A DNA stretch of 37,224 nt from a virus (taxonomy: Duplodnaviria > Heunggongvirae > Uroviricota > Caudoviricetes): IMG/VR virus record IMGVR_UViG_3300029473_000203, one strand, 5' to 3'. Below the pieces are notes generated by a model. It saw nothing but the letters and a program-made list of their open reading frames with translations, did not search any database and was not told the DNA's origin. Each line of letters opens with the position of its first letter. Positions within the stretch are counted from its first letter, which is position 1. This document shows positions 8,177-37,224 of this stretch, piece after piece. The position numbers and the translations under genes were made by a program.

Positions 8177-8860
8177 CTATGATTGAAGAGCAATCTTTCT
8201 CAACGTATCAAATACAATTTTTGTAAAATTATTTTCATTTTTAACGTCAATGTAAGCAAGAGCGTTATTAGTAATTTTAAGTTTACCAGAATACTCTAAT
8301 GAATTAACGGAGCAAACAAGTTTGTCAATTCTTATTTTCTTCCCCTCTAATTCTTCTTTATAATATTTTCTAAGGTCACTGCTGCCAATTATTTGCATTT
8401 TAGCTGTAGCGTAATCAGCGACTCTAACTCTAGAAATATCCAGCTGTGTTAGATTTATATTCACATTTGAAGATATTTCGTTGAGCCAATCCATCGGATT
8501 TATATCAATCTCTTCTAGGCTAACGCCTAAGCCAAGATTTCTGACTAAGGCCTGTGAAAACGGTTTTAACGTTCGCGGAGGGTTAGTAAGTTGCATTATA
8601 GGAAGAGTATCTAAAGATACACTGAAATTAGTAGTGCGGTATTCGACTCTTTCTACGATAGTTTCGCTTCCGTCAAAATTAGAAACTTGATCGTGATAAA
8701 TAATACGCTCAACAAAGCGTCCATGTGCAGAATCATGACGTATTTTATCAAAAATAAACCCTTTCCCCTTATCCTCGGTAAAAGAATCAAGAGAAAGACG
8801 TTTAACAGCTTTTTCAAATTCAAGCCGTATGTTTAATTTGAGCCACTTAACCTTCTTCAT
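8177..8860 (-). CDS. Cargo gene 3 of three-gene operon (227 aa, unknown function)
   Basis: Start overlaps the end of gene 2 by 14 nt; AT-rich by eye; no recognisable motif. Confidence 0.8.
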   Translation of the reverse strand: MKKVKWLKLNIRLEFEKAVKRLSLDSFTEDKGKGFIFDKIRHDSAHGRFVERIIYHDQVSNFDGSETIVERVEYRTTNFSVSLDTLPIMQLTNPPRTLKPFSQALVRNLGLGVSLEEIDINPMDWLNEISSNVNINLTQLDISRVRVADYATAKMQIIGSSDLRKYYKEELEGKKIRIDKLVCSVNSLEYSGKLKITNNALAYIDVKNENNFTKIVFDTLRKIALQS

Positions 8861-9926
8861 GTTCGTTTACCTCTGGTCCTATTATTATATTATAGGCATT
8901 TTCAGCGGCTGACTCAATTAATTCACTAATATGTCTTTTCTCTTGTGCCGTTGCCGCACGAATTGTCACATTGAATCCGTCTTCTTTTTGATTATTTATC
9001 CCTTTAATTTGATAGGCAAAGTCACAGCAATTTTCAGAGTCTTTGAAAAATGCTTCAACGTTAATTCTGTCACCAACTCCACTTGTCGGTTTTGAAGACC
9101 ATGCGATACGGCCTATATAATAACCTTTCTCGTGTAGTTGAGAAAATATAGGCGAACTATTAACACCTTCACCATTCAAAACAGCTTTCTTGACGAATCC
9201 GGTATCGATTGTTTCTTCTTTGTCTTCATCTTCACTTGCGTCAATACTGCGATTTAATTCTACTTTCGTTACATCATCAGTCTCATAACCATGTAGTCCA
9301 TTCATTAACTCTTGAAAGAACTGGCTTCGCAATGTAGGGTCAGTGATTGCCATTAAAGAAATTTCAAAACGTTCAATAGGCTCAGATTTGATTTTAGACA
9401 GCTCGTTTTGCAGACCCTCAATAACTTTTTTTGCCTCAGGATTCTGTGGCATACGTACTTCAACCTTGTCAACACCAGGGCGAAGTTCTATTATGACATT
9501 CCGTTTATCTATTTGACGCAGAGCGGTTTTAGATAAGTCTATTTCTTCATAGTTATATTCTACTGTCAGAGAACCATCTTTTTTCGCTACGATATTCAAG
9601 CTTTGCCCTTTACTGGGTGAACATGTTTTTTTCAATGCTTCAGCTGCGCTCTTTAATTCGGCCTGATTTGTTGTGGTCTGAAAACTCACACTGGTAATGC
9701 TTTCTCTTGGATCATATGTTTTGACCATCTTTTTTATATGCTCTAATTCATTAAAACCATGGGGGAGTTTTGATATTTCCTCGATAAGTATTTCCTTGTC
9801 GAGTTCTGGTGATAAAAAAACACCTCTATTTAGCAATAATTCATGTAATTTTGCAGGGGTTATTCTTTTATGATGCAAAGCATCATAAATATTCTTGTCA
9901 GTCGCAAAGTATAATTTTTTAGCCAT
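8847..9926 (-). CDS. Cargo gene 2 of three-gene operon (359 aa, unknown function)
   Basis: ATG overlaps gene 1 stop (TAATG on minus strand); acidic, Lys/Glu-rich; no Walker motif. Confidence 0.8.
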   Translation of the reverse strand: MAKKLYFATDKNIYDALHHKRITPAKLHELLLNRGVFLSPELDKEILIEEISKLPHGFNELEHIKKMVKTYDPRESITSVSFQTTTNQAELKSAAEALKKTCSPSKGQSLNIVAKKDGSLTVEYNYEEIDLSKTALRQIDKRNVIIELRPGVDKVEVRMPQNPEAKKVIEGLQNELSKIKSEPIERFEISLMAITDPTLRSQFFQELMNGLHGYETDDVTKVELNRSIDASEDEDKEETIDTGFVKKAVLNGEGVNSSPIFSQLHEKGYYIGRIAWSSKPTSGVGDRINVEAFFKDSENCCDFAYQIKGINNQKEDGFNVTIRAATAQEKRHISELIESAAENAYNIIIGPEVNEHEEG

Positions 9927-10927
9927 TATCGTTGCTCCATCCCAATTTTTTCAAGATTATATTCAACTACAACTTTGTCTGTCTTTTCGAAGTCAAATTT
10001 AAGAAAAAGTCTTTCATCCTCACCTAACAGCCAGTCTGTACTGTATTTCTTTTTAGCTTTTTCAAAATGATGAATAGCATTTTCATTTGGATGGATATGA
10101 CAATGACGTAATAAAATTGGTTTGCCTTCAGTGAGTATCTGATAAGTTGATAGCATGTCAAAAAAGTACACGAATTCATCTAATGAATCACCGGGTTGAT
10201 TGTAATAAACAACATACCCTTCTGGGATATCTTTTTTAAGCCAGCTAAAAGCCTCATGTTTAATTATGATGTATGGCGATGTTAATAATTCAATTGTCGC
10301 AGGTGTTGTTTGGTTGATGGGGTGTTTTATTCTTGTTAAAGAAAGATCTGGGTAATAGTAAGTAAACTTATCAGGCTGTGGAAGTTTTCCAGAGCCTATT
10401 AATTTGGTTATGTCAGAGGATATATTTATTAAATCAGATATTTTATAGGGGTCAAGTAAGTGTAGTTTTATGTTTGGAGGACAATTTATAACGGAATGAT
10501 CTAATTTTTTTGTAATATTTTCATAGAAATCTTTATCATATAGATTATCATGATTATACAAAAATAACAAACCTCTTACATTATAACCTAAAGAATCATC
10601 ATGAACGTATTTCAATCGCCACTCTTTACTTACATTCGCACACTCGGTAGCTAAAGCAAGTGAGGTTAAGGCACCTTCGACCATTTTTTTACCAATAGAT
10701 CCCTCCGCATAGCTCTTTAGATCTGTATTGAGATAGACCATTTCCTCTTCATAAGGGTCTGTGTAGAAAAATACAACATCACTTGGATGGGTTTTCTTGG
10801 AATGTACCTCTTGGCAACATTCCCAATTCATGTCCGCTCTAGCGGCGCGATCCCATTTGAATACAGAGAAAATATCATCAGAAATTTTACCTGCGACTCG
10901 TTGTATAGCCGAAGTTTCTCCACCCAT
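9926..10927 (-). CDS. Cargo gene 1 of three-gene operon (333 aa, unknown function; possible nuclease-like motifs)
   Basis: ATG at 10927 with AAGGAG RBS; tentative PD-(D/E)xK-like pattern (VVFFYTD ... MVYLNTDLK) and a His/Cys-rich patch RHCHIHPNENAIHH; no Walker A. Confidence 0.8.
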   Translation of the reverse strand: MGGETSAIQRVAGKISDDIFSVFKWDRAARADMNWECCQEVHSKKTHPSDVVFFYTDPYEEEMVYLNTDLKSYAEGSIGKKMVEGALTSLALATECANVSKEWRLKYVHDDSLGYNVRGLLFLYNHDNLYDKDFYENITKKLDHSVINCPPNIKLHLLDPYKISDLINISSDITKLIGSGKLPQPDKFTYYYPDLSLTRIKHPINQTTPATIELLTSPYIIIKHEAFSWLKKDIPEGYVVYYNQPGDSLDEFVYFFDMLSTYQILTEGKPILLRHCHIHPNENAIHHFEKAKKKYSTDWLLGEDERLFLKFDFEKTDKVVVEYNLEKIGMEQR

Positions 10928-11164: not shown

Positions 11165-11261
11165 CGCGCGCATTGAGTTAAAATTTCTTGAGTTGATGAA
11201 AATAAGATGTATTTTAATTTGGCACAGAAAAACCTAATAACTCACAAGGATAATGATAATA

Positions 11262-12188
11262 ATGCAAATAGTTTCCATCATAAATTATAAAGGTGGCGTT
11301 GGTAAAACAACAGTTACGTCTAATTTAGCCGCTGAATTAGCATTCCGAGGAAAGAATGTTTTAGTTCTGGATATGGATGCTCAGGCAAGCCTGACATTTT
11401 CGTTTCTAACTCCCGATTATTGGGATGAACATCTTAAAAATGAAAGGACCATTAAAAACTGGTTTGATTGTATTAGTCAGGGAGAGCAAACAATGCCTCT
11501 TTCGACTCTAAGAGTACGACCTGAACCTGTTAATAGTAGATTTGATAGAAAAGGTGGATGTTTGGATTTAATATCTTCCCACCTCGGGTTGATAAATGTT
11601 GATCTTGAGCTTGCGACTCTTCTAGGAGGGGCTAGCCCCAGTCAAACTCAAAAAAAATATCTTAAAGTTCATGGTAAACTTAGAGAGGAACTTCAAATAC
11701 TAGCTGACGAAATGAATTATGATGTTGTTTTAATTGATTGTCCACCTAACTTTAATATCGTAACAAAAAATGCTTTGATTGCATCAGATAAGATTTTGAT
11801 ACCAGCAAAACCTGATTATTTGTCAACGCTAGGTATTGATTATTTAAAAAGAAGCGTAGATTCTCTAGTTACAGACTATAATTTCTATGCCGATAAAGAT
11901 GAAGATTATGAAAGGGTATCTCCTGAGATTCTCGGAGTAGTTTTTACTATGATTCAAATTCATTCAGAACAACCTATTGCCGCGCAAAGACAGTATATTG
12001 CGCAGACAAAACGTCTAGGTGTTCCCGTATTTGATGCTATTTTTAGGGAGAATAAAACTATCTTTGCTGATGCCCCTAGAGATGGAATTCCTGTAGCATT
12101 AATTGGCTACTCGCATTCAACTCACTCTTCTATTGTAGGAGAGATTGAGGATTTTGTTGATGAATTCCTTCAAAAGATTGGAGAATAA
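11262..12188 (+). CDS. ParA/MinD-family P-loop ATPase
   Basis: Deviant Walker A KGGVGKTT near the N-terminus, VLVLDMDAQASLT, VVLIDCPPN; AT-rich; possible start at 11253 or 11262. Confidence 0.8.
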   Translation: MQIVSIINYKGGVGKTTVTSNLAAELAFRGKNVLVLDMDAQASLTFSFLTPDYWDEHLKNERTIKNWFDCISQGEQTMPLSTLRVRPEPVNSRFDRKGGCLDLISSHLGLINVDLELATLLGGASPSQTQKKYLKVHGKLREELQILADEMNYDVVLIDCPPNFNIVTKNALIASDKILIPAKPDYLSTLGIDYLKRSVDSLVTDYNFYADKDEDYERVSPEILGVVFTMIQIHSEQPIAAQRQYIAQTKRLGVPVFDAIFRENKTIFADAPRDGIPVALIGYSHSTHSSIVGEIEDFVDEFLQKIGE

Positions 12189-12190
12189 AA

Positions 12191-12586
12191 GTGAGTAAAG
12201 CTAAAACTTTAACTGTGCTATTTCGTGAATTACAAGATGCAGTTCTTGAACTCAATGAAGGGGAATTGGAAAAAATTATTTCGGGCGAGTATCAATTCGT
12301 CCTTAAGGTAGTTAAAAAACGTAATAGTACTGGTGCAAAGATAAGTTCAGTAGATAATTTTAGCTATAACGAATTGCTTGTTTTACTTAACCAGTGTGAG
12401 TCAAGAGAACAAGGTTGCGAGCTTTTGTCGCGTGAGCTTAAGACTAAATCTGAGTTTGAAAAATTCGCTCGTCATGTCGAGGTCGCTGTAATGAAAAGCG
12501 ATAAACTCGAGAAAATTAGAGATAATATTATTGAGTCGACAGTAGGTGCTAAACTCCGCTCTGATGCTATTCAGAATAAAAAGTAA
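12191..12586 (+). CDS. Small partner protein (131 aa) of the ParA-like ATPase, unknown function
   Basis: GTG start 2 nt after the ParA-like stop, with GGAGA upstream; charged, helical-looking sequence. Confidence 0.6.
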   Translation: MSKAKTLTVLFRELQDAVLELNEGELEKIISGEYQFVLKVVKKRNSTGAKISSVDNFSYNELLVLLNQCESREQGCELLSRELKTKSEFEKFARHVEVAVMKSDKLEKIRDNIIESTVGAKLRSDAIQNKK

Positions 12587-20918: not shown

Positions 20919-21357
20919 ACTGCAGAAGGTGGACGACTGGCTGAGTGCCTTGCTGGCGAATCTGGAACCAGCCTCGAGAAGCCGCATGATGCGCCAGCTG
21001 GCGCAGGAACTTCGCCGGACACAGCAGCAGAATATCAGGATGCAGCGCAACCCTGACGGCAGCAGCTATGAACCGCGACGGGTAACAGCACGCAGTAAAA
21101 AAGGCCGTATCAAACGTCAGATGTTTGCAAAGCTGCGCACCACAAAATACCTGAAAACTGCCGCCAGCACCGACTCTGCCAGCGTGCAGTTTGAAGGCAA
21201 GGTGCAGCGCATTGCCCGCGTTCACCATTACGGCCTGCGAGATCGCGTCAGTCGTAAGGGACCGGAGGTGCGTTACGCAGAGCGTCGCCTTCTGGGTGTA
21301 AATGATGATGTTGAGGCAATGACCCGCGACATGATTCTGCAATGGCTGGCGGGGTGA
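20911..21357 (+). CDS. S: Tail completion protein (P2 gpS-like)
   Basis: 148 aa following R with overlapping start/stop. Confidence 0.8.
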   Translation: MAELQKVDDWLSALLANLEPASRSRMMRQLAQELRRTQQQNIRMQRNPDGSSYEPRRVTARSKKGRIKRQMFAKLRTTKYLKTAASTDSASVQFEGKVQRIARVHHYGLRDRVSRKGPEVRYAERRLLGVNDDVEAMTRDMILQWLAG

Positions 21358-21361
21358 TCTT

Positions 21362-21379
21362 TGTATCAGCACTGATACA
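21362..21379. promoter_or_regulatory. Ogr-type late-activator binding dyad upstream of the V-W-J-I-H operon
   Basis: TGTATCAGCACTGATACA is a perfect TGT-N12-ACA palindrome. Confidence 0.5.
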
Positions 21380-21425
21380 AGTTGCAGCACTGCCGCCTTT
21401 CTTCCCCTGATGGCAACCTTTCCCT

Positions 21426-22004
21426 ATGAACGCACAATTAACCGAAATCATGCGCCTTATCACCAACCTGATCCGCACAGGGGTAGTCACCGAAGTGGAC
21501 AGGGAAAACTGGCTTTGCCGGGTGAAAACGGGCGAGCTTGAAACCAACTGGATCAGCTGGCTGACGCTGCGTGCCGGGAATGCCCGTACATGGTGGCGAC
21601 CATCGGAAGGTGAGCAGGTGGTGCTGCTGAGTCTGGGCGGCAATCTGGAAACCGCCTTTGCGCTGCCCGCTGTCTATTCGAATCAGTTCGCACCACCGTC
21701 GACGTCGGCGGACGCCTGCGTGACAGAACATCCTGACGGTGGCTGGTTTGAATACGAACCCGCCACCGGGCGCTGGTATGTCAGGGGCATCAAATCAATG
21801 GTCATTGAGGCTGCTGACAACATCACCATGAAAACCAGTGAGTTTGTACTGGAGGCTGACCGCACGCGCATTAACAGCGAAGTGGTGATCAATGGTGGCG
21901 TTACCCAGGGCGGCGGAGCGATGAGTTCTAACGGGATCGTGGTTGATGCGCATCAGCATACTGGCGTCCTGAAAGGCGGCGATACAACCGGAGCCCCGGT
22001 ATGA
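21426..22004 (+). CDS. V: Baseplate spike/assembly protein (P2 gpV-like)
   Basis: 192 aa; position and size as P2 V. Confidence 0.85.
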   Translation: MNAQLTEIMRLITNLIRTGVVTEVDRENWLCRVKTGELETNWISWLTLRAGNARTWWRPSEGEQVVLLSLGGNLETAFALPAVYSNQFAPPSTSADACVTEHPDGGWFEYEPATGRWYVRGIKSMVIEAADNITMKTSEFVLEADRTRINSEVVINGGVTQGGGAMSSNGIVVDAHQHTGVLKGGDTTGAPV

Positions 22005-22360
22005 CGCTTTATAGCGGGATGAACAATACCAGCGGCAAAGTCATTACTGATATTGATCATCTGCGCCAGTCGGTGCGGGACATTCTGCTGACACCGCAGG
22101 GTAGCCGTATTGCCCGCCGGGAATATGGTTCCCTGCTGTCGGCACTGATAGATCAGCCACAAAATCCGGCATTACGCCTGCAGGTCATGTCGGCAGTGTA
22201 TGTGGCGCTGAGTCGCTGGGAGCCACGGTTGACGCTGGATTCCATCACCATCAACAGCAATTTTGACGGTTCAATGGTGGTGGAGCTGACCGGGCGGCGG
22301 AATAACGGTGTGCCTGTGTCCCTTTCCGTATCAACAGGAGCAGAGAATGGCAGTGATTGA
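22001..22360 (+). CDS. W: Baseplate protein (P2 gpW-like)
   Basis: 119 aa, overlapping start/stop with V; lysozyme-like baseplate wedge family by position. Confidence 0.85.
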   Translation: MTLYSGMNNTSGKVITDIDHLRQSVRDILLTPQGSRIARREYGSLLSALIDQPQNPALRLQVMSAVYVALSRWEPRLTLDSITINSNFDGSMVVELTGRRNNGVPVSLSVSTGAENGSD

Positions 22361-23255
22361 CCTTTCGCAGTTGCCTGCACCGCAGATTGTGGATGTGCCG
22401 GACTTTGAGACGCTGCTTGCCGAACGCAAGGCAGAATTTGTGGCGCTTCATCCGAAAGATGAGCAGGAAGCAGTGATCCGCACGCTGGAACTGGAATCTG
22501 AACCCGCCACTAAATTGTTGCAGGAGAACGCTTACCGTGAGTTGCTTCTGCGCCAGCGCATTAACGAAGCCGCGCAGGCGGTGATGGTGGCTTACGCGAT
22601 GGGCGGCGATCTTGACCAGCTCGCTGCCAACTACAACGTGACACGCCTGACGGTGACGCCTGCTGATAATGATGCTGTGCCGCCCGTTGCAGCTGTGATG
22701 GAAAGCGATGAAGCGTTGCGCCTGCGTGTGCCTGCAGCCTTTGAAGGGCTTTCTGTTGCGGGGCCAACTGCAGCTTATGAATTTCATGCCCGAAGCGCCG
22801 ACGGTCGGGTGGCGGATGCCAGTGCAACCAGCCCGGCACCTGCAGAGGTGGTGCTGACTGTCCTTAGCCGCGAAGGCGATGGAACTGCAGAAAAAGACCT
22901 GCTGGACGTGGTGGAAAAAGCTCTGAACAGTGAGAACGTCCGCCCGGTGGCTGACCGTCTTACGGTTCGCAGCGCAGAAATCATCCCGTATCGCGTGGAA
23001 GCCACCATTTTTCTCTATCCTGGACCGGAAGCAGAGCCGGTAATGGCAGCGGCAAAAGCCAGCCTGCAGAAGTACATCGCCAGTCAGACGCGTCTTGGTC
23101 GGGATATTCGCCGTAGCGCCATCTTTGCCGCCCTGCATGTTGAGGGGGTGCAGCGTGTGGAGCTGGCTTCTCCTCTGGCGGATGTGGTCCTGAACAAAAC
23201 ACAGGCGGCATCATGTACGCAGTGGAGCGTAACCAACGGAGGAACGGATGAATAG
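22347..23255 (+). CDS. J: Baseplate protein (P2 gpJ-like)
   Basis: ATG at 22347 after CAGGAG (MAVIDLSQLPAP); about 302 aa as P2 J. Confidence 0.85.
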   Translation: MAVIDLSQLPAPQIVDVPDFETLLAERKAEFVALHPKDEQEAVIRTLELESEPATKLLQENAYRELLLRQRINEAAQAVMVAYAMGGDLDQLAANYNVTRLTVTPADNDAVPPVAAVMESDEALRLRVPAAFEGLSVAGPTAAYEFHARSADGRVADASATSPAPAEVVLTVLSREGDGTAEKDLLDVVEKALNSENVRPVADRLTVRSAEIIPYRVEATIFLYPGPEAEPVMAAAKASLQKYIASQTRLGRDIRRSAIFAALHVEGVQRVELASPLADVVLNKTQAASCTQWSVTNGGTDE

Positions 23256-23853
23256 TCTGCTGCCACCGGGTTCAACACCACTGGAGCGCCGACTGGCGCA
23301 AACCTGCAGCGGGATTTCTGATCTGCAGGTGCCGCTTCGTGACTTGTGGAATCCGGCAACCTGTCCGGTCAGTTTCCTGCCTTATCTCGCCTGGGCGTTC
23401 TCTGTGGATCGCTGGGACGAGGGCTGGACAGAAAGCGTCAAGCGCCAGGTGGTGAAGGATGCTTTTTATATTCATCAGCATAAAGGGACCACCAGTGCCG
23501 TGCGGCGGGTGGTGGAGCCGTTCGGATTCCTGATCCGCATTATTGAGTGGTGGCAGACCGGAGAAACACCGGGCACGTTTCGCCTGGATATCGGCGTGCA
23601 GGACCAGGGCATCACTGAAGATACCTATCTGGAACTTGAGCGACTGATAAGCGATGCCAAACCATGTAGCCGCCACATGATCGGCATGTCCATCAATCTG
23701 CAGACCAGCGGCCCGCATTGGGTGGGAGCCGCCAGCTATCATGGCGAAGAAATCACGATCTATCCGTATATCAACGAAACGATTATTTCCGGTGGCACCG
23801 CGCATGAAGGCGGGGCGGTCCATGTTATTGACACAATGAGAGTGAATCCATGA
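23248..23853 (+). CDS. I: Baseplate/tail protein (P2 gpI-like)
   Basis: 201 aa; position between J and the tail fibre gene. Confidence 0.85.
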   Translation: MNSLLPPGSTPLERRLAQTCSGISDLQVPLRDLWNPATCPVSFLPYLAWAFSVDRWDEGWTESVKRQVVKDAFYIHQHKGTTSAVRRVVEPFGFLIRIIEWWQTGETPGTFRLDIGVQDQGITEDTYLELERLISDAKPCSRHMIGMSINLQTSGPHWVGAASYHGEEITIYPYINETIISGGTAHEGGAVHVIDTMRVNP

Positions 23854-25265
23854 GCACAAAATTTTATACCCTGCTGACGGATATTGGCGCGGCGAAACTT
23901 GCCAGCGCCGCCGCGCTCGGTGTGCCGCTAAAAATTACCCATATGGCGGTGGGCGATGGCGGTGGAGTATTGCCAACGCCGGACGCAAAGCAGACGGCAC
24001 TGGTAAATGAGAAACGCCGGGCTGCGCTGAATATGCTTTATATCGACCCGCAGAACAGCAGCCAGATTATTGCCGAACAGGTGATCCCTGAAAACGAGGG
24101 CGGTTGGTGGATACGTGAAGTGGGCTTGTTTGATGAGTCCGGGGCATTGATTGCCGTGGGCAACTGCCCGGAAAGCTATAAGCCGCAACTGGCTGAAGGT
24201 AGCGGGCGCACTCAGACCGTGCGCATGGTGCTGATTACCAGCAGCACGGACAATATCACCCTGAAAATCGACCCTGCTGTAGTGCTGGCAACCCGCAAGT
24301 ATGTGGATGACAAGGCACTGGAGCTGAAAGTGTACGCGGATGATCAGATGGCAAAACATCTTGCCGCACCGGACCCGCATTCACAGTACGCGCCAAAAGC
24401 CAGCCCGACATTTACCGGAACCCCCAAAGCGCCAACGCCAGCGGCGGGGAATAATACCACGCAGGTTGCGACCACTGCGTTTGTACAGGCGGCACTGACG
24501 GCCCTTATTAATGGTGCGCCAGCCACGCTGGACACGCTGAAAGAAATAGCCGCAGCCATTAACAATGATCCGAATTTCAGTACCACCATTAACAATGCGC
24601 TGGCACTAAAAGCACCGTTGTCGAGTCCGGCACTCACCGGAACGCCAACAGCCCCCACGGCGGCGCAGTCGGTCAACAATACACAGATTGCCACTACGGC
24701 TTTTGTGAAATCGGCGATTGCAGGAATGGTGGGTTCTGCACCTGCTGCACTGGATACACTGAACGAACTGGCGGCGGCACTGGGGAATGATCCGAACTTT
24801 GCCACGACAATGCTTAATGCGCTGGCAGGTAAACAACCGCTGGACAATACGCTTACCAATTTGAGTGGAAAGGATGTAGCTGGTCTTCTCACATACCTTG
24901 GTTTAGGAGATGCGGCAAAAAAAAATGTTGGCACTGGTTCCGGACAGATTCCGGACATGTCTTCATTTGGTAATCAGCGAGCCGATTCGGGGTATCAATA
25001 CCTGCCAGGCGGGTTAATTCTTCAATGGGCAATAGCCATAACGAGAACATCCCCAGAAACAGTATCATTCCCGATTGCGTTTCCAACCAGGGCGCTATGT
25101 GTTGTTGCAACAGACCAGAGTGTTGGGGGTACAGGTCAAGGTTTTGCGTTAACCGCCCAGGATTTTACGAGAACTAATTTCCAGCTACGCGCTTATCAGA
25201 CAGGAACCTACGCTGAATCATCCATCGGCGCTGGCGGGTTTAACTATTTTGCTGTGGGGTATTAA
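23850..25265 (+). CDS. H: Tail fibre protein (P2 gpH-like) with constant N-terminus and invertible C-terminal cassette
   Basis: N-terminus MSTKFYTLLTDIGAAKLA...MAVGDGGG is typical of P2-family H; contains two tandem repeats of about 73 aa; the C-terminus lies inside the invertible segment. Confidence 0.85.
   Translation: MSTKFYTLLTDIGAAKLASAAALGVPLKITHMAVGDGGGVLPTPDAKQTALVNEKRRAALNMLYIDPQNSSQIIAEQVIPENEGGWWIREVGLFDESGALIAVGNCPESYKPQLAEGSGRTQTVRMVLITSSTDNITLKIDPAVVLATRKYVDDKALELKVYADDQMAKHLAAPDPHSQYAPKASPTFTGTPKAPTPAAGNNTTQVATTAFVQAALTALINGAPATLDTLKEIAAAINNDPNFSTTINNALALKAPLSSPALTGTPTAPTAAQSVNNTQIATTAFVKSAIAGMVGSAPAALDTLNELAAALGNDPNFATTMLNALAGKQPLDNTLTNLSGKDVAGLLTYLGLGDAAKKNVGTGSGQIPDMSSFGNQRADSGYQYLPGGLILQWAIAITRTSPETVSFPIAFPTRALCVVATDQSVGGTGQGFALTAQDFTRTNFQLRAYQTGTYAESSIGAGGFNYFAVGY
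24402..24842 (+). repeat. Tandem repeat (2 x about 220 nt / 73 aa) inside the tail fibre gene
   Basis: Repeat 1 SPTFTGTPKAPT...NNTTQVATTAFV...APATLDTLKEIAAAINNDPNFSTT; repeat 2 SPALTGTPTAPT...NNTQIATTAFV...APAALDTLNELAAALGNDPNFATT. Confidence 0.6.
24886..24911. repeat. Invertase crossover site (gix/cix-like), left, inside gene H
   Basis: TTCTCACATACC-TT-GGTTTAGGAGAT resembles the Mu gix site (TTCCTGTAAACC-GA-GGTTTTGGATAA, from memory) and is inverted relative to the site at 26433-26458. Confidence 0.6.
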
Positions 25266-25268
25266 TAA

Positions 25269-25700
25269 ATGGCTTATTTTTATTCAGCATTAAATAACGC
25301 TTTCTACCCTGATGAGCTCAGAGATGTTTATGAAGCGAGTAGAAACTGGCCTGACGATCTCATAGCCGTCTCAGATGAGACATTCACTGAATATTCGGGG
25401 ATGCCACCAGAGGGTAAAACTCGTGGAGCTACTGAGGATGGAATGCCGGCATGGGTAGACATTCCACCTTTAAGCCATGAGGAGGAAATCGCAGCAGCTG
25501 AAGCTGAAAAACAGTATCGTATCGATCAGGCTAATGAGTATATAAACAGCAAGCAGTGGCCGGGTAAAGCTGCGCTGGGGCGACTTACAGACGACGAGAA
25601 GGCCCAGTATAACGAGTGGCTGGATTATCTCGATGCGCTGGAATCTGTGGACATATCCAGCGCACCAGATATCAACTGGCCTGAGTCGCCGGAGGAGTAG
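25269..25700 (+). CDS. Tail fibre assembly chaperone (P2 gpG / Tfa-like)
   Basis: N-terminus [16 protein letters not shown] typical of the Tfa family; directly after H. Confidence 0.8.
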
Positions 25701-26091
25701 GCCAGTCCGGGTCTGCTGTATCAACTCGCATCAGCAGCACCCGGTATTTTTTCCATTCGGCTAATGAAACAGTTTCTTCTTCCGTCGCGATCCCCGCATC
25801 AACGGCGTCCTGCCGCCATTCTATTTCAGAGTCAGCTGAAGCACGCAGTCGCGATTTTTCGGCTTCTGCCAACGCAATAATTTCCTCTTCAGTTGGTTCG
25901 GGAATATCTATCCATTCAGGTAAACCATCAGAATTAGGAGCGCGTAATTTTCCGTTAGGTGATTCTCCGGCAAACTCAACGAATACGGAATAGTCTACTT
26001 CAACGGCATCGTCAGGCCAGCTACCTGCATTTTCATAAATACTTTTTAGCTCATCAGCGTAGAACGCATTTTCTTTTGCAGAATAAAACAT
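25672..26091 (-). CDS. Alternative tail fibre assembly chaperone (tfa') of the inverted orientation
   Basis: N-terminus [14 protein letters not shown] parallels the plus-strand Tfa; its 3' end overlaps the tfa 3' end convergently (25672-25700). Confidence 0.75.
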
Positions 26092-26096
26092 ATTAA

Positions 26097-26444
26097 TCAC
26101 CATCCAATCGCGAAAACTCTAAAGCCACCGTAGCCAGCACATGTAATCTGAGTTCTTGTTACCGTCGTATAGTATGATCGGCCCACCGCTAAGCTATATG
26201 CGGCTGTAGAACTCAAATCAACTGCCCCAGTTGATACATCACTAAATAACGGAATCATGCACTCATTTGGGAATGCAATAGGGAAATTCGCAGTTACTGG
26301 TGTCACATAATCAGTTGTAGCAGCACCAAACCACTGCAATATGATCACCCGTTCTTTCCCGGCGACCATTGCCGGGATAGTCATATAGCCTGTAGAGCCG
26401 GTCACACACACCGCTGCGCCTAATTTTGCTCCCTCTCCCAAACC
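26097..26444 (-). other. Alternative tail-fibre C-terminal cassette (start-less; fused to H constant part after inversion)
   Basis: Minus-strand frame ...NVGLGEGAKLGAAV... ends GFRVFAIGW, compared with the current H end GFNYFAVGY; the reading frame is continuous with H across the crossover core. Confidence 0.65.
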
Positions 26445-26458
26445 AACGTTTATGAAAA
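26433..26458. repeat. Invertase crossover site (gix/cix-like), right, just upstream of the invertase gene
   Basis: Reverse complement TTTTCATAAACG-TT-GGTTTGGGAGAG; shares the GGTTT(A/G)GGAGA half-site and TT core with the left site. Confidence 0.6.
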
Positions 26459-26513
26459 TGCAGAGATAATGGCTAACTGGCATCATCCCCGGTTTTTATT
26501 CAGGGGATTGATC

Positions 26514-27080
26514 ATGCTTATTGGCTATGTACGCGTGTCAACAAATGACCAGAACACCGATTTGCAACGTAATGCACTGAACTGCGCGGGATGTGAGCGG
26601 ATTTTTGAGGACAAAATCAGTGGTACTAAGTCCGACAGACCGGGGCTTAAAAAACTGCTCAGGACACTATCGGCAGGTGACACACTGGTTGTCTGGAAGC
26701 TGGACAGGTTGGGGCGCAGTATGCGGCATCTTGTTACTCTGATAGAAGAGTTGCGCCAGCGCGGCGTGAATTTCAGAAGTCTGACTGACAGTATTGATAC
26801 CAGTACCCCAATGGGCCGTTTCTTTTTTCATGTCATGGGTGCCCTGGCTGAAATGGAACGCGAACTGATAGTTGAACGTACCAGGGCAGGGCTGGCTGCA
26901 GCTCGTGCTAAAGGCAGAGTAGGTGGACGCCGTCCTAAGTTGACTACCGAACAGTGGGCACAGATTGGACGTTTACTCGAGGCCGGAGAATCAAGACAGC
27001 GTATTGCACTGATTTTTGATGTGGGCGTTTCTACCATTTATAGAAAATTTCCGGCGAATGAGAACAATGAATCGCCCTGA
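26514..27080 (+). CDS. Serine recombinase DNA invertase (Gin/Cin/Hin/Pin family)
   Basis: N-terminus MLIGYVRVSTNDQNTDLQ with catalytic-Ser context, C-terminal HTH; ATG at 26514 within ORF track 26469..27080. Confidence 0.9.
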   Translation: MLIGYVRVSTNDQNTDLQRNALNCAGCERIFEDKISGTKSDRPGLKKLLRTLSAGDTLVVWKLDRLGRSMRHLVTLIEELRQRGVNFRSLTDSIDTSTPMGRFFFHVMGALAEMERELIVERTRAGLAAARAKGRVGGRRPKLTTEQWAQIGRLLEAGESRQRIALIFDVGVSTIYRKFPANENNESP

Positions 27081-27128
27081 GTCAGCATTATTTTGATTTT
27101 TCCTGTAAGCGGACAAATACCGTTATTT

Positions 27129-27146
27129 TGTGTGAATAACGACACA
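27129..27146. promoter_or_regulatory. Ogr-type late-activator binding dyad upstream of the FI-FII-E-T-U-D operon
   Basis: TGTGTGAATAACGACACA (TGT-N12-ACA) centred about 86 bp upstream of the FI start. Confidence 0.45.
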
Positions 27147-27222
27147 ACTGCGCTTAGCTGTTTGTCAGGCACAATCACTTCAACATAGGGCGAAGCCTAA
27201 TCCAATCAGGAGGTTCGCCACT

Positions 27223-28395
27223 ATGGCTCAGGATTACCACCACGGAGTGCGCGTTGTTGAAGTCAACGAAGGCACCCGATCCATTACCACGGTGAGCACC
27301 GCCATCGTGGGTATGGTCTGCACGGGCGATGATGCCGATGCAAAAATGTTTCCTCTTAATAAACCCGTGCTGATCACTGATGTGCTGACAGCCAGCGGTA
27401 AAGCGGGTGAGTCCGGTACGCTGGCCCGTTCTCTGGACGCCATCGCTGACCAGGCAAAACCCGTGACCGTTGTTGTGCGTGTGCCGCAGGGTGAAACGGA
27501 AGAAGAAACCACGACCAATATCATCGGAGCAGTGACCGCTGAAGGTAAAAAAACAGGCATGAAAGCCCTGTTATCTGCCCAGTCACAGCTCGGCGTTAAA
27601 CCGCGCATTCTCGGCGTGCCAGGCCACGACACCAAGGCGGTAGCTACTGAGTTGCTGAGCGTGGCGCAAAGCCTGCGTGGATTTGCTTACCTGTCAGCGT
27701 ATGGCTGCAAGACGGTACAGGAGGCGATCACTTACCGTGAAAACTTTAGCCAGCGCGAAGGGATGCTGATCTGGCCTGACTTTACTGGCTGGGACACGGT
27801 GCTGAATGCCGAAGCAACGGCATATGCCACCGCCCGTGCGCTTGGTCTGCGCGCCAAAATTGACGAGCAGACCGGATGGCACAAAAGCCTGTCCAACGTG
27901 GGCGTGAACGGTGTCACCGGAATTTCTGCTGATGTGTTCTGGGATCTGCAGGACCCGGCAACCGATGCAGGTCTGCTGAACCAGAACGACGTCACCACGC
28001 TTGTGCGTAAAGACGGTTTCCGCTTCTGGGGTTCCCGCTGCCTGAGTGATGACCCGCTCTTTGCCTTCGAAAACTACACCCGCACGGCGCAGGTGCTGAT
28101 GGACACGATGGCAGAAGCACACATGTGGGCGGTGGATAAACCGCTTAACCCGTCGCTGGCCCGCGACATTATCGAGGGTATCCGCGCCAAAATGCGCAGC
28201 CTGGTCAGTCAGGGCTATCTCATTGGTGGTGATTGCTGGCTGGATGAGTCGGTGAACGACAAAGACACGCTGAAAGCCGGAAAACTCACCATCGACTACG
28301 ACTACACGCCAGTGCCGCCACTTGAAAACCTGATGCTGCGTCAGCGCATCACCGATCAGTACCTGGTGAATTTCTCTAGCCAGGTCAGCGCGTAA
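27223..28395 (+). CDS. FI: Contractile tail sheath protein (P2 gpFI-like)
   Basis: 390 aa; AGGAGG RBS; position and size as P2 FI. Confidence 0.9.
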
Positions 28396-28404
28396 GGGGA
28401 CAAC

Positions 28405-28920
28405 ATGGCTTTACCACGCAAATTAAAACACCTGAACCTGTTTAATGACGGGAACAACTGGCAGGGGATCGTTGAGTCGCTGACGCTGCCGAAATTCACC
28501 CGCAAATATGAGAAGTATCGCGGCGGCGGAATGCCGGGTGCAGTGGATGTGGATCTGGGGCTTGATGACAGTGCGCTGGACACAGAATTTTCCATTGGTG
28601 GTACTGAACTGCTGCTGTTTAAACAGATGGGCAAAGCCACGGTGGATGGCATCCAGTTGCGCTTCACCGGCTCTATCCAGCGTGACGATACCGGAGAAGT
28701 GCAGGCCGTGGAGCTTGTGGTGCGTGGACGTCACAAAGAAGTGGATTCCGGCGAGTGGAAGACGGGCGAAAGCAACACCACCAAAGTGACCAGTACCAAC
28801 AGCTACGCGAAGCTGACTATCAATGGAGAGGTGCTCTATGAAGTGGACCTTATCAACATGGTGGAAATTGTGGACGGTGTGGACCTGATGGAAGCGCACC
28901 GCAACGCCCTCGGCCTCTGA
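28405..28920 (+). CDS. FII: Tail tube protein (P2 gpFII-like)
   Basis: 171 aa immediately after the sheath gene. Confidence 0.9.
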   Translation: MALPRKLKHLNLFNDGNNWQGIVESLTLPKFTRKYEKYRGGGMPGAVDVDLGLDDSALDTEFSIGGTELLLFKQMGKATVDGIQLRFTGSIQRDDTGEVQAVELVVRGRHKEVDSGEWKTGESNTTKVTSTNSYAKLTINGEVLYEVDLINMVEIVDGVDLMEAHRNALGL

Positions 28921-28974
28921 TGTATCTGAACGGCGCGGAATGCCGCGCCAGAACCCAATTTACAGGACAGCAAA

Positions 28975-29277
28975 ATGAGCGATAAGCAGACTGAAAAGAC
29001 TATTAAACTGGATACTCCCATCATGCGCGGTAAAACAGAAATTACCGAAATTGTGCTGCGTAAACCGCAGTCCGGTGCGCTGCGCGGCACACGCCTGCAG
29101 GCCATTATGGATATGGATGTGAACGCGATGATGACCGTGATCCCCCGCATCTCCAGTCCGGCACTGACTGCACAGGAAATCGCAGAGATGGACCCGGCAG
29201 ATCTCACTGCCATGTCGGTTGAGGTTGTCACTTTTTTGTTGAAGAAGTCGGTGCTTGCCGGTTTACCGACAGCCTGA
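28975..29277 (+). CDS. E: Tail assembly chaperone (P2 gpE-like)
   Basis: 100-aa ORF before the tape measure gene; contains slippery TTTTTTG near its 3' end. Confidence 0.8.
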   Translation: MSDKQTEKTIKLDTPIMRGKTEITEIVLRKPQSGALRGTRLQAIMDMDVNAMMTVIPRISSPALTAQEIAEMDPADLTAMSVEVVTFLLKKSVLAGLPTA

Positions 29278-34060: not shown

Positions 34061-34150
34061 TTCTTCGCAATGGAGAACTTTTAAGTTTGCAAAATGGAAT
34101 AATGCGGTATCATTATTGTGAATTTAGCAAAAATGGGGAGAACTCGAAAA

Positions 34151-34369
34151 ATGATGATTTGCCCACTGTGTGGAAGTGCCGCCCATACTCGCAGCAGTTT
34201 TCAGGTATCTTCATTGACCAAAGAGCGTTACAACCAGTGCCAGAACATTAACTGCAGCCATACTTTTGTTACCCATGAAACTTTTGTTCGTTCGATTGCA
34301 ACGCCAAAAGAGTCAAATCCGGTTCAGCCGCATCCAATGAAATCAGGACAGGTGGCGCTCTCTCTTTGA
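34151..34369 (+). CDS. ogr: Late gene transcriptional activator Ogr (zinc-finger)
   Basis: MMICPLCGSAAHTRSS...KERYNQCQNINCSHTF has the C-x2-C-x22-C-x4-C pattern and resembles P2 Ogr as I recall it; start at 34151 within ORF track 34118..34369. Confidence 0.8.
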   Translation: MMICPLCGSAAHTRSSFQVSSLTKERYNQCQNINCSHTFVTHETFVRSIATPKESNPVQPHPMKSGQVALSL

Positions 34370-34455
34370 CGCTGCCGCCATTTTGTCGCCATCGTTAAAA
34401 AACAGTGTTTCTAACATCATGATTTTAAACAGCTTAAATTTCAGGCAACAAAAAA

Positions 34456-34492
34456 CCCATCAACCTTGAACCGAAATGGCGGGGTTGATGGG
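34456..34492 (-). terminator. Hairpin plus T-tract on the minus strand (candidate ybjL terminator / prophage-host junction region)
   Basis: CCCATCAACC ... GGTTGATGGG inverted repeat, followed on the minus strand by TTTTTTG; the loop is long (about 17 nt), so the structure is uncertain. Confidence 0.35.
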
Positions 34493-34604
34493 CTCCACAA
34501 AATGGGGACATCAAAGAAAAGCAGTGGCACTAATTAAGACTGATGCCCTGCGGAAAAGTTCTGCGGTTGTGCAAAAAAATTTCATTTTCAGGGCAACTTC
34601 AGTT

Positions 34605-36290
34605 TTATCCTAATCCTGGCCATACCATGACGATGATTGTCCCTGCCAGCGTCAGCAGGACGTTGGCGATTGCATAGGTGCCCGCATAGCCCAGCGCCGG
34701 GATGTTACTGCGAGCTGTATCACTGATGATCTCCATTGCCGGCGCGCAGGTACGTGCGCCCATCATTGCGCCGAACAACAGCGCGCGGTTCATTCGCAAT
34801 ACATAAGCACCGAACAAGAAACAGATAACCACGGGCACCAGACTGACAATCAATCCGGCAATCAACATCTGACCGCCAATCGCGCCCAAGCCGTTATTAA
34901 TACCGCTACCGGCGCTCAGACCAACGCCTGCCATAAACACCATCAAGCCGAACTCTTTCACCATGCTTAATGCACCCTGCGGAATGTAACCGAAGGTCGG
35001 GTGGTTAGCACGCATAAAGCCCAGCATAATTCCGGCGAATAACAACCCGGCAGCGTTCCCCATGCCGAAACTGAATGTGCTGAACTGGAAGGTGATCATC
35101 CCGATCATCAGCCCAATAACAAAGAAGGCGCAAAATGCCAGCAGGTCAGTGACCTGGCTGTGAATCGAGATAAAGCCGATGCGATCGGCGATGGTTTTTA
35201 CGCGACGGGCATCACCGCTGACTTGTAAAACGTCACCTTTGTTAAGCACGACGTTGTCATCTATCGGCATCTCAATCTGGCTACGAATGACGCGGTTAAG
35301 GAAGCAACCGTGATCGGTCAACTTCAGTTGTGCGAGACGTTTACCTACAGCGTTATGGTTTTTAACGACCACTTCTTCAGTGACGATACGCATGTCGAGA
35401 AGGTCACGATCGAAAACTTCTTTACCGTTACGGAAGCTGGGATCGAGTCGGGCATGGGCGTCGGGATAGCCTACCAACGCTATTTCATCGCCCATTTGTA
35501 GCACGGCATCACCGTCTGGATTTGCCAGAATCCCGTTACGTCGAATACGTTCAATGTAGCAGCCGGTTTGTCGATAAATACCCAGTTCACGCAGATTTTT
35601 GCCGTCGGTCCAGGCCACCAGCTCCGGGCCGACGCGATAGGCGCGGATCACCGGTAAATAAACCTTACGGTTGGCATCAGTGTCCAGGCCACGTTCGCGG
35701 GCGATTTGCTGGGCGCTGGTCTGTAAGTCCTGATGCTGCAATTTCGGCAAGTAACGCGCACCAACAATCAAACTCACCAGACCGATTAAATAGGTTAAGG
35801 CATACCCGAGGCTCAGATTATCCAGTGCCAGTGAGAGCTGCCTGCTTTCCATGCCGGAATGACGCAGTGTATCGCCAGCACCGACCAGAACCGGTGTCGA
35901 CGTCATAGAGCCTGCTAACATACCGGCCGTCAGGCCAATATCCCAGCCAAACAGCTTACCTAACCCTAAGGCGATCACCAGCGCACTGCCAACCATCACC
36001 AGTGCTAACATTAGGTAATTTTTCCCATCGCGAAAAAAAATGGAAAAAAAGTTCGGTCCGGCTTCAACCCCAACACAGAAAATAAACAGCATAAAGCCAA
36101 GATTAAGCGCATCGGTGTTAATGCTGAAATGTTGTTGGCCTAATAACAGCGATACGACTAAAACGCCAATGGAATTACCCAGTTGGATCGAACCAAGTCG
36201 TAACTTTCCGAGACATAGCCCAAGCGCGAGGACCACAAATAATAACAGAATGTAATTCCCATTTAACAATTCGGCGACGTTTATATTCAC
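34605..36290 (-). CDS. ybjL: Putative transporter YbjL (host gene)
   Basis: 561-aa polytopic membrane protein with a central soluble region; matches E. coli YbjL by size and remembered sequence. Confidence 0.85.
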
Positions 36291-36559
36291 GGAGGCTAAC
36301 TTCTTGTTTACTAGTAAGCTGTTGAAAGAAATGGTAATTTACGATAATGTTTTTTACCAGAATTCAGGGCGCAGATTCATTCAGCGCACCTAAACGATAG
36401 TAAAGTAACAATATATTTTACTAGTGTAATCACATTAGGTATCAACGGCTATATGAATTGCGTTGGCCTATATTAGCATGGAATGCGAAGCGGCTTTATC
36501 TTACTGAACGCCACACTGGCGAAAAATGTGTTCGATAGACGCAGTGTCAGGAGGAACGA

Positions 36560-36937
36560 GTGAAACATAAACAACGTTGGGCGGGGGCAATCTGCTGTTT
36601 TGTCCTCTTCATTGTGGTGTGCCTTTTTCTGGCGACGCACATGAAAGGCGCTTTTCGGGCTGCCGGGCATCCTGAAATCGGCTTGCTATTTTTCATTCTT
36701 CCTGGAGCAGTCGCCAGCTTCTTTTCACAGCGTAGAGAAGTCCTGAAACCTCTGTTTGGCGCAATGCTGGCGGCACCCTGTTCGATGCTCATTATGCGGC
36801 TGTTTTTTTCACCGACGCGCTCATTCTGGCAAGAGCTGGCATGGTTATTAAGTGCGGTGTTCTGGTGTGCGCTGGGGGCACTGTGTTTCTTATTTATCAG
36901 TAGTTTGTTTAAACCACAGCACAGAAAAAATCAGTAA
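36560..36937 (+). CDS. ybjM: Inner membrane protein YbjM (host gene)
   Basis: 125-aa hydrophobic protein; GTG start; located between ybjL and grxA as in E. coli K-12. Confidence 0.8.
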   Translation: MKHKQRWAGAICCFVLFIVVCLFLATHMKGAFRAAGHPEIGLLFFILPGAVASFFSQRREVLKPLFGAMLAAPCSMLIMRLFFSPTRSFWQELAWLLSAVFWCALGALCFLFISSLFKPQHRKNQ

Positions 36938-36957
36938 AGCCCTCAACGCGAGGGCTT
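36937..36957. terminator. Hairpin between convergent ybjM and grxA (candidate bidirectional terminator)
   Basis: AAGCCCTC / loop AACGC / GAGGGCTT. Confidence 0.5.
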
Positions 36958-36966
36958 GTCAGACGA

Positions 36967-37224
36967 TCAGGCGTCCAGATTTTCTTTCACCCATGCAGCA
37001 AAATCGGTATAGCCGCCGATATGTTGCTGATCGACAAAAATCTGCGGCACGGTTTCTACGGGTTTACCTGCCTTTTGTTGTAGATCTTCTTTAGTGATCC
37101 CTTCCGCACGAATATCTACATAGTGATACTGAAAATCATCGTGTTCATTGCTCAATTTCTCAGCCAGATCTTTTGCACGCACACAGTAAGGGCAACCCGG
37201 ACGACCAAAAATAACGGTTTGCAT
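36967..37224 (-). CDS. grxA: Glutaredoxin 1 (host gene)
   Basis: 85 aa with CPYC active site (MQTVIFGRPGCPYCVRAKDL...); matches E. coli GrxA almost exactly as I recall it. Confidence 0.9.
   Translation of the reverse strand: MQTVIFGRPGCPYCVRAKDLAEKLSNEHDDFQYHYVDIRAEGITKEDLQQKAGKPVETVPQIFVDQQHIGGYTDFAAWVKENLDA

Follow-up and report, generated by a model that had tools for sequence, protein, structure and literature searches.

A 37,224-nucleotide stretch of viral DNA, the whole of which is referred to here as the window, carries a recombinase gene next to two sets of tail-fibre tip and chaperone sequences that converge from opposite strands. The question raised by this locus is whether one set can still be exchanged for the other, or whether the arrangement is a locked relic, serves the lysogen, or consists of diverged duplicates beside a recombinase that is otherwise employed. 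An earlier note on this DNA had proposed a Gin-family invertible tail-fibre switch, and this proposal is supported here by the anatomy of the locus, by its protein families, by the layout of the sites and by genome comparison. It is considered highly probable that the late tail operon of this E. coli prophage contains a site-specific inversion switch which has two states and is functional.

The prophage of the window is P2-like, belongs to E. coli and adjoins rybB/ybjL, and window flanks share 94-97% DNA identity with P2-like phage records. The gene order is of the P2 type (int, CI-type repressor, A, Q-P/O-N-M-L, V-W-J-I-H-G, FI-FII-E-T-U-D, ogr), and to judge from its genes the prophage looks complete from int to ogr. 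The integrase, CI repressor and GPA were assigned from the ORF map and Pfam, the V-W-J-I genes and the tail genes from the sheath gene to D take their names from near-identical annotated relatives, ogr was named from the annotation of E. coli records matching the right end of the window, and the head genes Q-P and O-N-M-L were assigned from ORF size and position alone. Rfam gave no match at the switch locus, and in the window as a whole just the host RybB was recognized (34447-34525).

Crossover sites, fibre tips and chaperones

The left crossover site (26 bp, 24886-24911, plus strand) reads TTCTCACATACC TT GGTTTAGGAGAT, with its TT core at 24898-24899, and sits within the reading frame of the fibre gene H at the codons Y-L-G-L-G-D. 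The right site (26 bp, 26433-26458, minus strand) reads CTCTCCCAAACC AA CGTTTATGAAAA on the plus strand, with its core at 26445-26446, and its reverse complement is TTTTCATAAACG TT GGTTTGGGAGAG. Since the core dinucleotides are asymmetric, with TT on the left and AA on the right of the plus strand, the sites are inverted relative to each other, and in this orientation they agree at 20 of 26 positions. The segment that they delimit measures 1573 bp between outer ends, in keeping with the 1.57 kb given earlier, and 1545 bp from core to core (24900-26444). Within it lie two convergent cassettes, each composed of a gp53-like fibre C-terminus and a Tfa chaperone gene.

The inverted gix-like sites with TT cores described in the earlier note were confirmed, and the window contains no others. 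Searched with a degenerate 25-mer allowing three mismatches or fewer, the 37-kb window gave two matches (0.00 expected from 100 shuffles), and a half-site scan recovered the same two sites only (shuffle mean 0.03, n = 100). A repeat search of the window did not list the pair, probably because the longest exact run that the sites share is only 7 bases. No third or cryptic site was found in the window with the degenerate 25-mer, a 12-mer core pattern or the half-site scan at any threshold tried; the extra 12-mer matches at 4576 and 36746 are at chance level (7 found, 3.9 expected). With two sites in the window, a multi-site inversion system of at least three sites, such as the Min type of p15B or the three-site EPEC P2-like locus, was rejected; Min has six sites and many cassettes.

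That the sites would align with those of known Gin-family systems had also been anticipated, and they do, being nearer to e14 pix and P1 cix than to Mu gix. The 12-2-12 layout is shared by Mu gix, P1 cixL and e14 pix. The e14 pix sites have the TT core and match the window sites at 20-25 of 26 positions, the highest figure being that of the e14 Pin-proximal site against the right site of the window (25/26); P1 cixL also has a TT core and matches a window site at 18/26, whereas Mu gix has a TC core and the window sites match it at 16-17/26. The left outer half-site of the window differs in two positions from the consensus of the family, and the right site has C for G beside the core, a feature that it shares with the functional site of e14.

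The fibre gene H (23850-25265, plus strand) encodes 471 aa and is crossed by the left site. Its constant N-terminal part of about 350 aa (23850-24899) lies outside the invertible segment, contains the Pfam Phage_tail_fib N-terminal domain (E=5e-65), and, as far as the left site, is 97-99.7% identical to its counterpart in other P2-like prophages of E. coli. In the orientation found here it is continued by an Sv-like C-terminus of about 120 aa (24900-25265, plus strand; Pfam Gp53-like_C, E=1e-16). The alternative C-terminus, Sv', of about 115 aa (26097-26444, minus strand), is also a Gp53-like_C domain (E=7.5e-10), has no start codon of its own inside the segment and is 33% identical to Sv. Over the sites, ...LLTYLGLGDAAKK is read on the plus strand and ...FINVGLGEGAKLG on the minus strand, and the convergence of the two fibre frames at the sites, noted earlier, is borne out by inversion in silico: the constant part of H continues in frame into Sv', giving an open H' of 465 aa. 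The crossover thus falls within the fibre ORF, and the frame stays open in both orientations. This predicted H' shares 450 of 465 residues with the H annotated in Ecol_224; over the displayed stretch, which starts 20 residues ahead of the junction and extends to the C-terminus, there is one difference (T/A), three positions before the junction.

The tfa gene of the expressed cassette (25269-25700, plus strand; Pfam Caudo_TAP, E=2e-38) is the analogue of P2 G and Mu U. Its silent counterpart, tfa' (25672-26091, minus strand; Caudo_TAP, E=9e-34), encodes a protein 41% identical to Tfa. The convergent overlap of the two 3' ends, reported previously, amounts to 29 bp. The minus-strand cassette had been placed at 26097-26444 with tfa' at 25672-26091, and both elements are present, but their boundaries are less firm: taken formally, the ORF of the tip begins beyond the right site, with an ATG at 26486 (129 aa), and tfa' may start at 26103, the choice made by RefSeq in relatives. 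RefSeq also annotates the counterpart of the 129-aa ORF in relatives, in either orientation, as a separate 'gp53-like domain-containing protein'.

The 29-bp overlap was considered as a bidirectional terminator hairpin and rejected, its fold being unremarkable (z = -1.35); the 8-bp inverted repeat that it contains is due to two Trp-Pro codon pairs. In 24700-27300 there are 6 terminator-like sites, where 2.4 would be expected (sd 1.8). A 57-nt inverted repeat of 77% identity is present in the 5' ends of the two tfa genes.

The invertase and its putative enhancer

The gene at 26514-27080 (plus strand), which had been called a serine invertase, encodes a 188-aa protein of the Gin/Cin/Pin/Hin family with Pfam Resolvase (E=2e-53) and HTH_7 (E=1e-15) domains; the right site lies upstream, 55 bp from the start of the gene. 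The protein is 75% identical to Mu Gin, 77% to P1 Cin and 85% to e14 Pin, and matches the Gin crystal structure 3UJ3 with E=2e-92. The catalytic Ser9 is present (YVRVS(9)TNDQ), and D64, R65 and R68 occupy alignment columns that do not vary between this protein and Gin, Cin and Pin. The numbering of Hin is offset by one residue from that of the window protein, as derived from the match of the latter to the Hin DNA-binding-domain chain, which we take to begin at Hin 139. In Hin, the residues K47, K/R48, K/R51, Q151, R154 and L155 contact Fis or the enhancer and are conserved only in Fis/enhancer-dependent invertases (PMC3798978). The window invertase has K46, K47 and R50 at the positions of Hin K47/R48/K51, and Q150, R153 and L154 at those of Hin Q151/R154/L155.

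The putative Fis-dependent recombinational enhancer, assigned purely by homology, is located at 26532-26603 (plus strand), corresponding to nucleotides 19-90 of the gene; a gapless alignment pairs it with the stretch of cin (nt 19-90) that is marked as an enhancer in the P1 record. The putative enhancer is 72/78/88% identical to gin/cin/pin, against 66/68/75% for the remainder of the gene, a comparison confounded by coding constraint. Identity at synonymous codons over invertase codons 1-15 is 69%, against about 42% elsewhere, a modest excess that is not decisive. Two candidate G-N13-C cores, at nt 22 and nt 71, are present in the window gene and in gin and pin alike. The same region also encodes the catalytic N-terminus of the invertase and is therefore under coding constraint. 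In the interval 24700-27300, no invertase promoter was found above chance (4 promoter-like sites, 3.2 expected in shuffles).

On comparative evidence, the Gin-family invertase is predicted to catalyse inversion between the two sites. Here dimers of the invertase would bind both 26-bp sites and synapse them; the DNA would then be cut at the central 2-bp TT core and the ends rotated by 180 degrees, so that 24900-26444 is inverted. The reaction probably requires host Fis bound to the putative enhancer in the 5' end of the invertase gene. In the present state, the late transcript would specify H (471 aa, tip Sv) followed by Tfa, and in the inverted state the same promoter and the same 350-aa constant N-terminus would serve H' (465 aa, tip Sv') followed by Tfa'.

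Orientation of the segment in public genomes

The existence of both orientations among natural isolates, on which the earlier proposal depended, was shown by genome comparison. Neither the arrangement of the window nor its in-silico flip, together with the invertase, was found at a query coverage of at least 80% in any record among 5,426 complete E. coli genomes; the evidence for two orientations is therefore taken from relatives that lack the invertase and from a sister family with another cassette. None of the matches in 50,697 phage records extended over more than 20% of the 1.5-kb segment, and similarity to the window cassette amounted to about 70% identity over the 3' half of tfa.

The same cassette pair (99.6% identity) is inverted in five E. 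coli genomes, Ecol_224, MS6192, MS6193, CH468 and NCTC11023, the flanks of which are 95.8-97.2% identical to the window. All five have both recombinant sites as predicted, with junctions at the predicted core, and the annotated H of flipped-cassette relatives corresponds to the predicted 465-aa H'. The opposite-orientation relatives with the exact cassette pair of the window have no invertase gene, and the inversion in them may date from an earlier time or be due to an invertase supplied in trans.

The sister prophage family, with its other cassette, is represented by 48 genomes in one orientation and 36 that match the in-silico flip, and the best matches to each orientation are full length and in one piece. 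Its H-constant DNA is 99.7% identical to that of the window, and the invertase protein of WGI31CT is 100% identical to that encoded here. The sharpest comparison is that of the near-isogenic GPEC1366 and GPEC673: the flanks are 100% identical, the sole difference is a flip of their own cassette pair, and the flipped 1.9-kb segment shows one mismatch. Both share the left outer half-site of the window, and their invertase is identical to that of the window at 186 of 188 residues.

These observations bear on the reading that the switch is a fossil or locked, with sites, enhancer or invertase expression degenerate, so that the present H/Tfa pair alone is ever made. The agreement of the site arms at just 20/26, the two consensus departures of the left outer half-site and the lack of a promoter-like match upstream of the invertase would fit such a state, and the relatives without an invertase show that decay of the module is possible. 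Yet the invertase ORF is intact, its product being the one shared with WGI31CT; GPEC673 and GPEC1366 differ by a clean flip and use the same left outer half-site; the right site is almost that of e14, which flips in culture (PMC4272514); and both cassettes retain open frames and intact domains. A locked switch is hence judged very unlikely, and the functional two-state switch, which probably flips in the source strain as well, is preferred.

The junctions also bear on whether these are mere diverged duplicate fibre and chaperone genes, with flips produced by RecA-dependent recombination or assembly error and a recombinase employed elsewhere. The cassettes are indeed paralogous, with the inverted repeat in the tfa 5' ends. 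However, the flip junctions of the relatives lie in the 26-bp sites and not in this longer repeat, the exchange interval is confined to the common TTGGTTT at the core, the same junctions recur across many independent complete genomes, and the recombinase is closely homologous to dedicated invertases. This explanation is regarded as extremely improbable.

Known switches and exchange of cassettes

The site-specific switch supported by these junctions is an ordinary one of the Mu G, P1 C and e14 P type, the principle of which has been textbook knowledge since those three systems. The e14 P segment of E. coli K-12 (stfP-tfaP/tfaE-stfE/pinE) has the identical layout of fibre, tfa, convergent tfa', alternative tip and invertase, and tfaP and tfaE overlap by the same 29 bp; its cassette sequences differ from those of the window, and e14 is defective, a remnant in which stfP is short (209 aa by annotated coordinates), whereas the window is a seemingly complete prophage with a 471-aa H. 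Mu G likewise combines a constant fibre N-terminus (Sc) with Sv/U and Sv'/U' cassettes and has Gin just outside the segment, and the crossover falls in homologous codons (N-L-G-L in Mu, Y-L-G-L in the window); but in Mu the segment has a length of about 3 kb, the tips are much larger, U does not overlap U', and the phage itself is a transposable myovirus, unlike this P2-like prophage. The P1 C segment is about 4.2 kb, and cin lies on its other side, with cixL overlapping the cin 3' end. The P2-like loci of the EPEC E2348/69 prophages, Escherichia phage 500465-1 and Klebsiella Kp48xx are likewise located between H and the sheath gene FI, with invertase and H-constant DNA 94-97% identical to the window, but have another cassette pair. 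Experiments have demonstrated inversion in e14 and also in P2-like EPEC prophages, the latter with two-variant and four-variant inversions documented by sequencing and PCR (PMC4272514).

The closeness of the right site and the invertase to those of e14 also raises a role in the lysogen, whereby inversion, or the short ORF from ATG 26486, would yield a free or chimeric receptor-binding protein that masks the receptor and blocks other phages. Such masking has been reported for PinQ and for e14 StfE2, and inversion of the e14 P segment yields StfE2, which blocks T2 adsorption (PMC12529663); in addition, RefSeq annotates the short ORF across the right site in relatives of either orientation. Since the prophage looks complete with P2 gene order, however, H belongs to the late operon and should be silent in the lysogen, and the short ORF has a weak ribosome-binding context and no promoter-like site. 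A lysogen role would moreover be compatible with a host-range function in the virion. It is judged very unlikely to be the main role of the locus, and a switch acting on the virion remains the favoured reading.

The same 1.55-kb cassette pair (99.6-99.9%) occurs in four contexts, of which the window prophage is one; the others are a second P2-like lineage (CM151386), P2-like prophages that lack the invertase but retain both sites, and, in NCTC11023, an unrelated tail cluster beside tonB with a recombinase just 54% identical. Where a relative carries another cassette or the flipped one, homology to it breaks within the left site, and homology likewise stops inside the 26-bp sites where the flanks are unrelated or different, as in the tonB cluster, in the invertase-less prophages with a flipped segment and in the sister prophage that has another cassette. 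The site-bounded segment behaves as a horizontally traded module. It is possible, if doubtful, that invertases trade cassettes intermolecularly between co-resident prophages and flip those of invertase-less ones in trans. The literature was also searched for a '3HP' hotspot system, and none came up.

The locus matters chiefly for annotation: a single fibre gene that has two possible C-termini should be recorded here, not separate 'gp53-like' proteins, and assemblies of such strains may differ by the flip alone. The genomes compared illustrate cleanly, in natural isolates, both flipping and the exchange of cassettes at crossover sites; if intermolecular exchange and trans flipping do take place, they would amount to a host-wide network that diversifies fibre tips. 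By homology to the known switches, the two tips, which are diverged, may differ in receptor specificity, and a population of lysogens would then release two types of virion with different receptor-binding tips, a bet-hedging host-range switch. Prediction of the host range of such prophages should take in both tips.

Prophage setting and the two fibre cassettes

The window is a piece of E. coli chromosome with a P2-like prophage that is seemingly complete. At the right end, positions 34100-37224 match the ogr-ybjL-ybjM-grxA DNA of E. coli at 100% identity. The gene for the host sRNA RybB (34447-34525, minus strand; Rfam RF00110, 105 bits) is situated between the prophage ogr position, which was placed through annotated E. 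coli records matching this stretch, and ybjL; the rybB region may be the prophage attachment site. The ORF map starts with an integrase, a CI-type repressor and gene A (Pfam matches), continues with ORFs at P2 head-gene positions, assigned by size and position only, and includes in its later part V-W-J-I-H, tfa and the sheath gene, on to D, with tail-gene names taken from near-identical annotated relatives. Anti-phage defence cargo occupies the P2 hotspot that separates gene A from the portal gene Q, where three successive minus-strand ORFs of 227, 359 and 333 aa (8177-10927) match the PADLOC models Hp3, Hp2 and Hp1 over their full length (E 5e-144 to 1.5e-245); a Pfam search of the three returned no match. 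We take this trio to be the three-gene ‘3HP’ candidate system. The same hotspot contains, immediately before the portal gene, a plus-strand ParA/MinD-like AAA_31 ATPase (311 aa) followed by a 131-aa ORF without a family match (11253-12586 for the pair).

The invertible locus is placed between H and the sheath gene FI. The earlier note had read it as a tail-fibre switch, and each element that it named was found where it had been placed. The tail-fibre gene H (23850-25265, plus strand, 471 aa) combines a Phage_tail_fib N-terminal domain with a Gp53-like_C tip and the next gene, tfa (25269-25700, plus strand), encodes a Caudo_TAP chaperone. Another Caudo_TAP gene, the silent tfa′ (25672-26091 or -26103), lies on the minus strand, as does another Gp53-like_C tip (26097-26444), for which the segment contains no start codon. 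The two tips are 33% identical and the two chaperones 41%. The 3′ ends of tfa and tfa′ overlap by 29 bp, exactly as do those of tfaP and tfaE of e14, and the overlap is also kept in sister prophages (WGI31CT-type P2-like prophages with near-identical H-constant DNA and another cassette pair). An inverted repeat, ACTGGCCT...AGGCCAGT (25668-25699), is found within this overlap because Trp-Pro codons occur in both C-termini, and the RNA fold of the overlap is not unusual (z = -1.35). A 129-aa minus-strand ORF (26097-26486) begins upstream of the invertase gene, at an ATG that the segment does not include, and crosses the right site to continue into the silent tip. Whichever the orientation, RefSeq lists its counterparts in relatives as ‘gp53-like domain-containing protein’. 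The ORF is probably an artefact of annotation, a free receptor-binding domain being a possible alternative.

Crossover sites and invertase

The segment is bounded by two 26-bp sites, TTCTCACATACC-TT-GGTTTAGGAGAT on the plus strand at 24886-24911 and, read as the reverse complement, TTTTCATAAACG-TT-GGTTTGGGAGAG on the minus strand at 26433-26458, which agree at 20 of 26 positions. No other matches were found in the 37 kb (0.00 expected, 100 shuffles), and a half-site scan of the window yielded two matches against a shuffle mean of 0.03. The site sequences of Mu, P1 and e14 were read from public records, and the same scan, run on these records, returned only those sites that adjoin the invertase gene or fall within the fibre gene: two each in Mu and e14, and one in the P1 stretch. 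The Mu sites coincide with annotated segment boundaries and the P1 site with cixL; the e14 record has no annotated sites. A 12-2-12 layout is common to all four systems. The TT core of the window sites is that of P1 cix and e14 pix, whereas the Mu core is TC, and the Pin-proximal site of e14 matches the window’s right site at 25/26 positions. The left site falls at a homologous place in the fibre gene, within codons N-L-G-L of S in Mu and Y-L-G-L of H in the window. Because of these matches in layout, core and position, the objection that the earlier note had raised against its own reading, that the sites might be unlike those of the Gin family, does not hold.

The adjoining gene (26514-27080, plus strand) encodes a 188-aa serine invertase with Resolvase and HTH_7 domains that matches the Mu Gin crystal structure 3UJ3 (E=2e-92), shares 75% identity with Gin, 77% with Cin and 85% with e14 Pin, and conserves the catalytic Ser9. 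A longer ORF from an ATG at 26469 is probably unused; annotation of relatives begins at MLIGY. Residues K46, K47, R50, Q150, R153 and L154 are the counterparts of Hin K47/R48/K51 and Q151/R154/L155, a set that McLean et al. (PMC3798978) reported to be conserved in Fis/enhancer-dependent invertases only. The P1 record annotates an enhancer to which nt 19-90 of the window’s gene can be aligned gap-free, with identities for this stretch of 72/78/88% to gin/cin/pin versus 66/68/75% for the remaining gene; synonymous codon identity is raised in codons 1-15, and the gene shares with gin and pin two G-N13-C candidate Fis cores, at nt 22 and nt 71. These signals are only suggestive of a putative enhancer, since nt 19-90 also codes for the catalytic N-terminus.

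By homology to the Gin, Hin and Cin systems, dimers of the invertase on the two sites would synapse and cleave at the 2-bp core, followed by exchange through subunit rotation, with site polarity set by the asymmetric TT core. Fibre tip and cognate chaperone would thus be swapped together, the promoter and N-terminus remaining unchanged. A change of host range upon inversion of the fibre segment is established for Mu and P1, and from these two phages we infer that the two orientations would differ in host range.

Both orientations among natural isolates

The question of flipping was addressed through natural variation among genomes. Five E. coli genomes (Ecol_224, MS6192, MS6193, CH468 and NCTC11023) carry a P2-like prophage with flanks related to the window (97.2% identity over 21001-24920 and 96.6% over 27095-29000), in which window 24895-26446 is present on the opposite strand at 99.6%. 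The junctions, TTCTCGCATACC-TT-GGTTTGGGAGAG and ATCTCCTAAACC-AA-CGTTTATAAAAA, correspond exactly to the recombinant sites that exchange at the core would produce. The annotated 465-aa H of this group is the fibre predicted from an in-silico flip of the window (450/465 identical), with a single T/A difference, three residues before the junction, from 20 residues ahead of the junction to the C-terminus. These prophages show a clean absence of 628 bp (window 26469-27096), comprising the invertase gene with 45 bp upstream and 16 bp downstream; GAT occurs at both edges of the deletion, and both 26-bp sites are intact (comparison loci L003 3985-4001 and L008 3646-3665). Any flipping of such invertase-less prophages would have to be done in trans.

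The sister prophage of WGI31CT shares H-constant DNA (99.7%) and an identical invertase protein (100%) with the window, and has another cassette pair, homology ending at 24910 and restarting at 26434. With its region as found as the query, 48 complete genomes gave at least 80% coverage; with the in-silico flip, 36 others reached that level, and the top matches to either query were full length and in one piece. Isolates GPEC1366 and GPEC673 have flanks that are 100% identical and a 1.9-kb fibre segment that is flipped with a single mismatch. Both were obtained from chickens in a single US state, Georgia. Their left outer half-site is the window’s TTCTCACATACC and their invertase is identical to the window’s at 186/188 residues. 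They provide a natural before/after comparison for this family of invertases. Inversion in culture has been documented by sequencing and PCR for e14 and two P2-like prophage loci (PMC4272514).

A mobile cassette pair

The cassette pair, that is the two convergent units of tip and chaperone, behaves as a mobile module. Four contexts contain it with 99.6-99.9% identity: the window itself; another P2-like lineage (CM151386), in the same orientation and with a 197-aa invertase; the invertase-less P2-like prophages of the Ecol_224 group; and a non-P2 tail cluster beside yciI-tonB in NCTC11023 (L001 3741-6177; 99.9%). The recombinase of the tonB-side cluster is only 54% identical to the window’s invertase, and the outer half-sites there differ from those of the window. 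Where the flanks are unrelated or different, homology breaks inside the sites: in the tonB cluster, in the flipped invertase-less prophages and in the sister prophage with the other cassette. Genes of the tonB-side cluster include a spike, baseplate J, DUF2612 and a 211-aa gp53-like fibre, and NCTC11023 also has an invertase-less P2-like copy of the cassette pair. The window’s exact combination was not found in either orientation among 5,426 complete E. coli genomes, nor was its cassette found in 50,697 phage records, except for about 70% identity in the 3′ half of tfa.

Both the observation of the earlier note and its interpretation as a Gin-family invertible fibre switch were correct. Systems of this kind are thoroughly known, the closest being the P/Pin module of e14 and the loci of P2-like prophages for which inversion has already been demonstrated; the only mildly new angle is possible trafficking of cassettes and flipping in trans among co-resident prophages.
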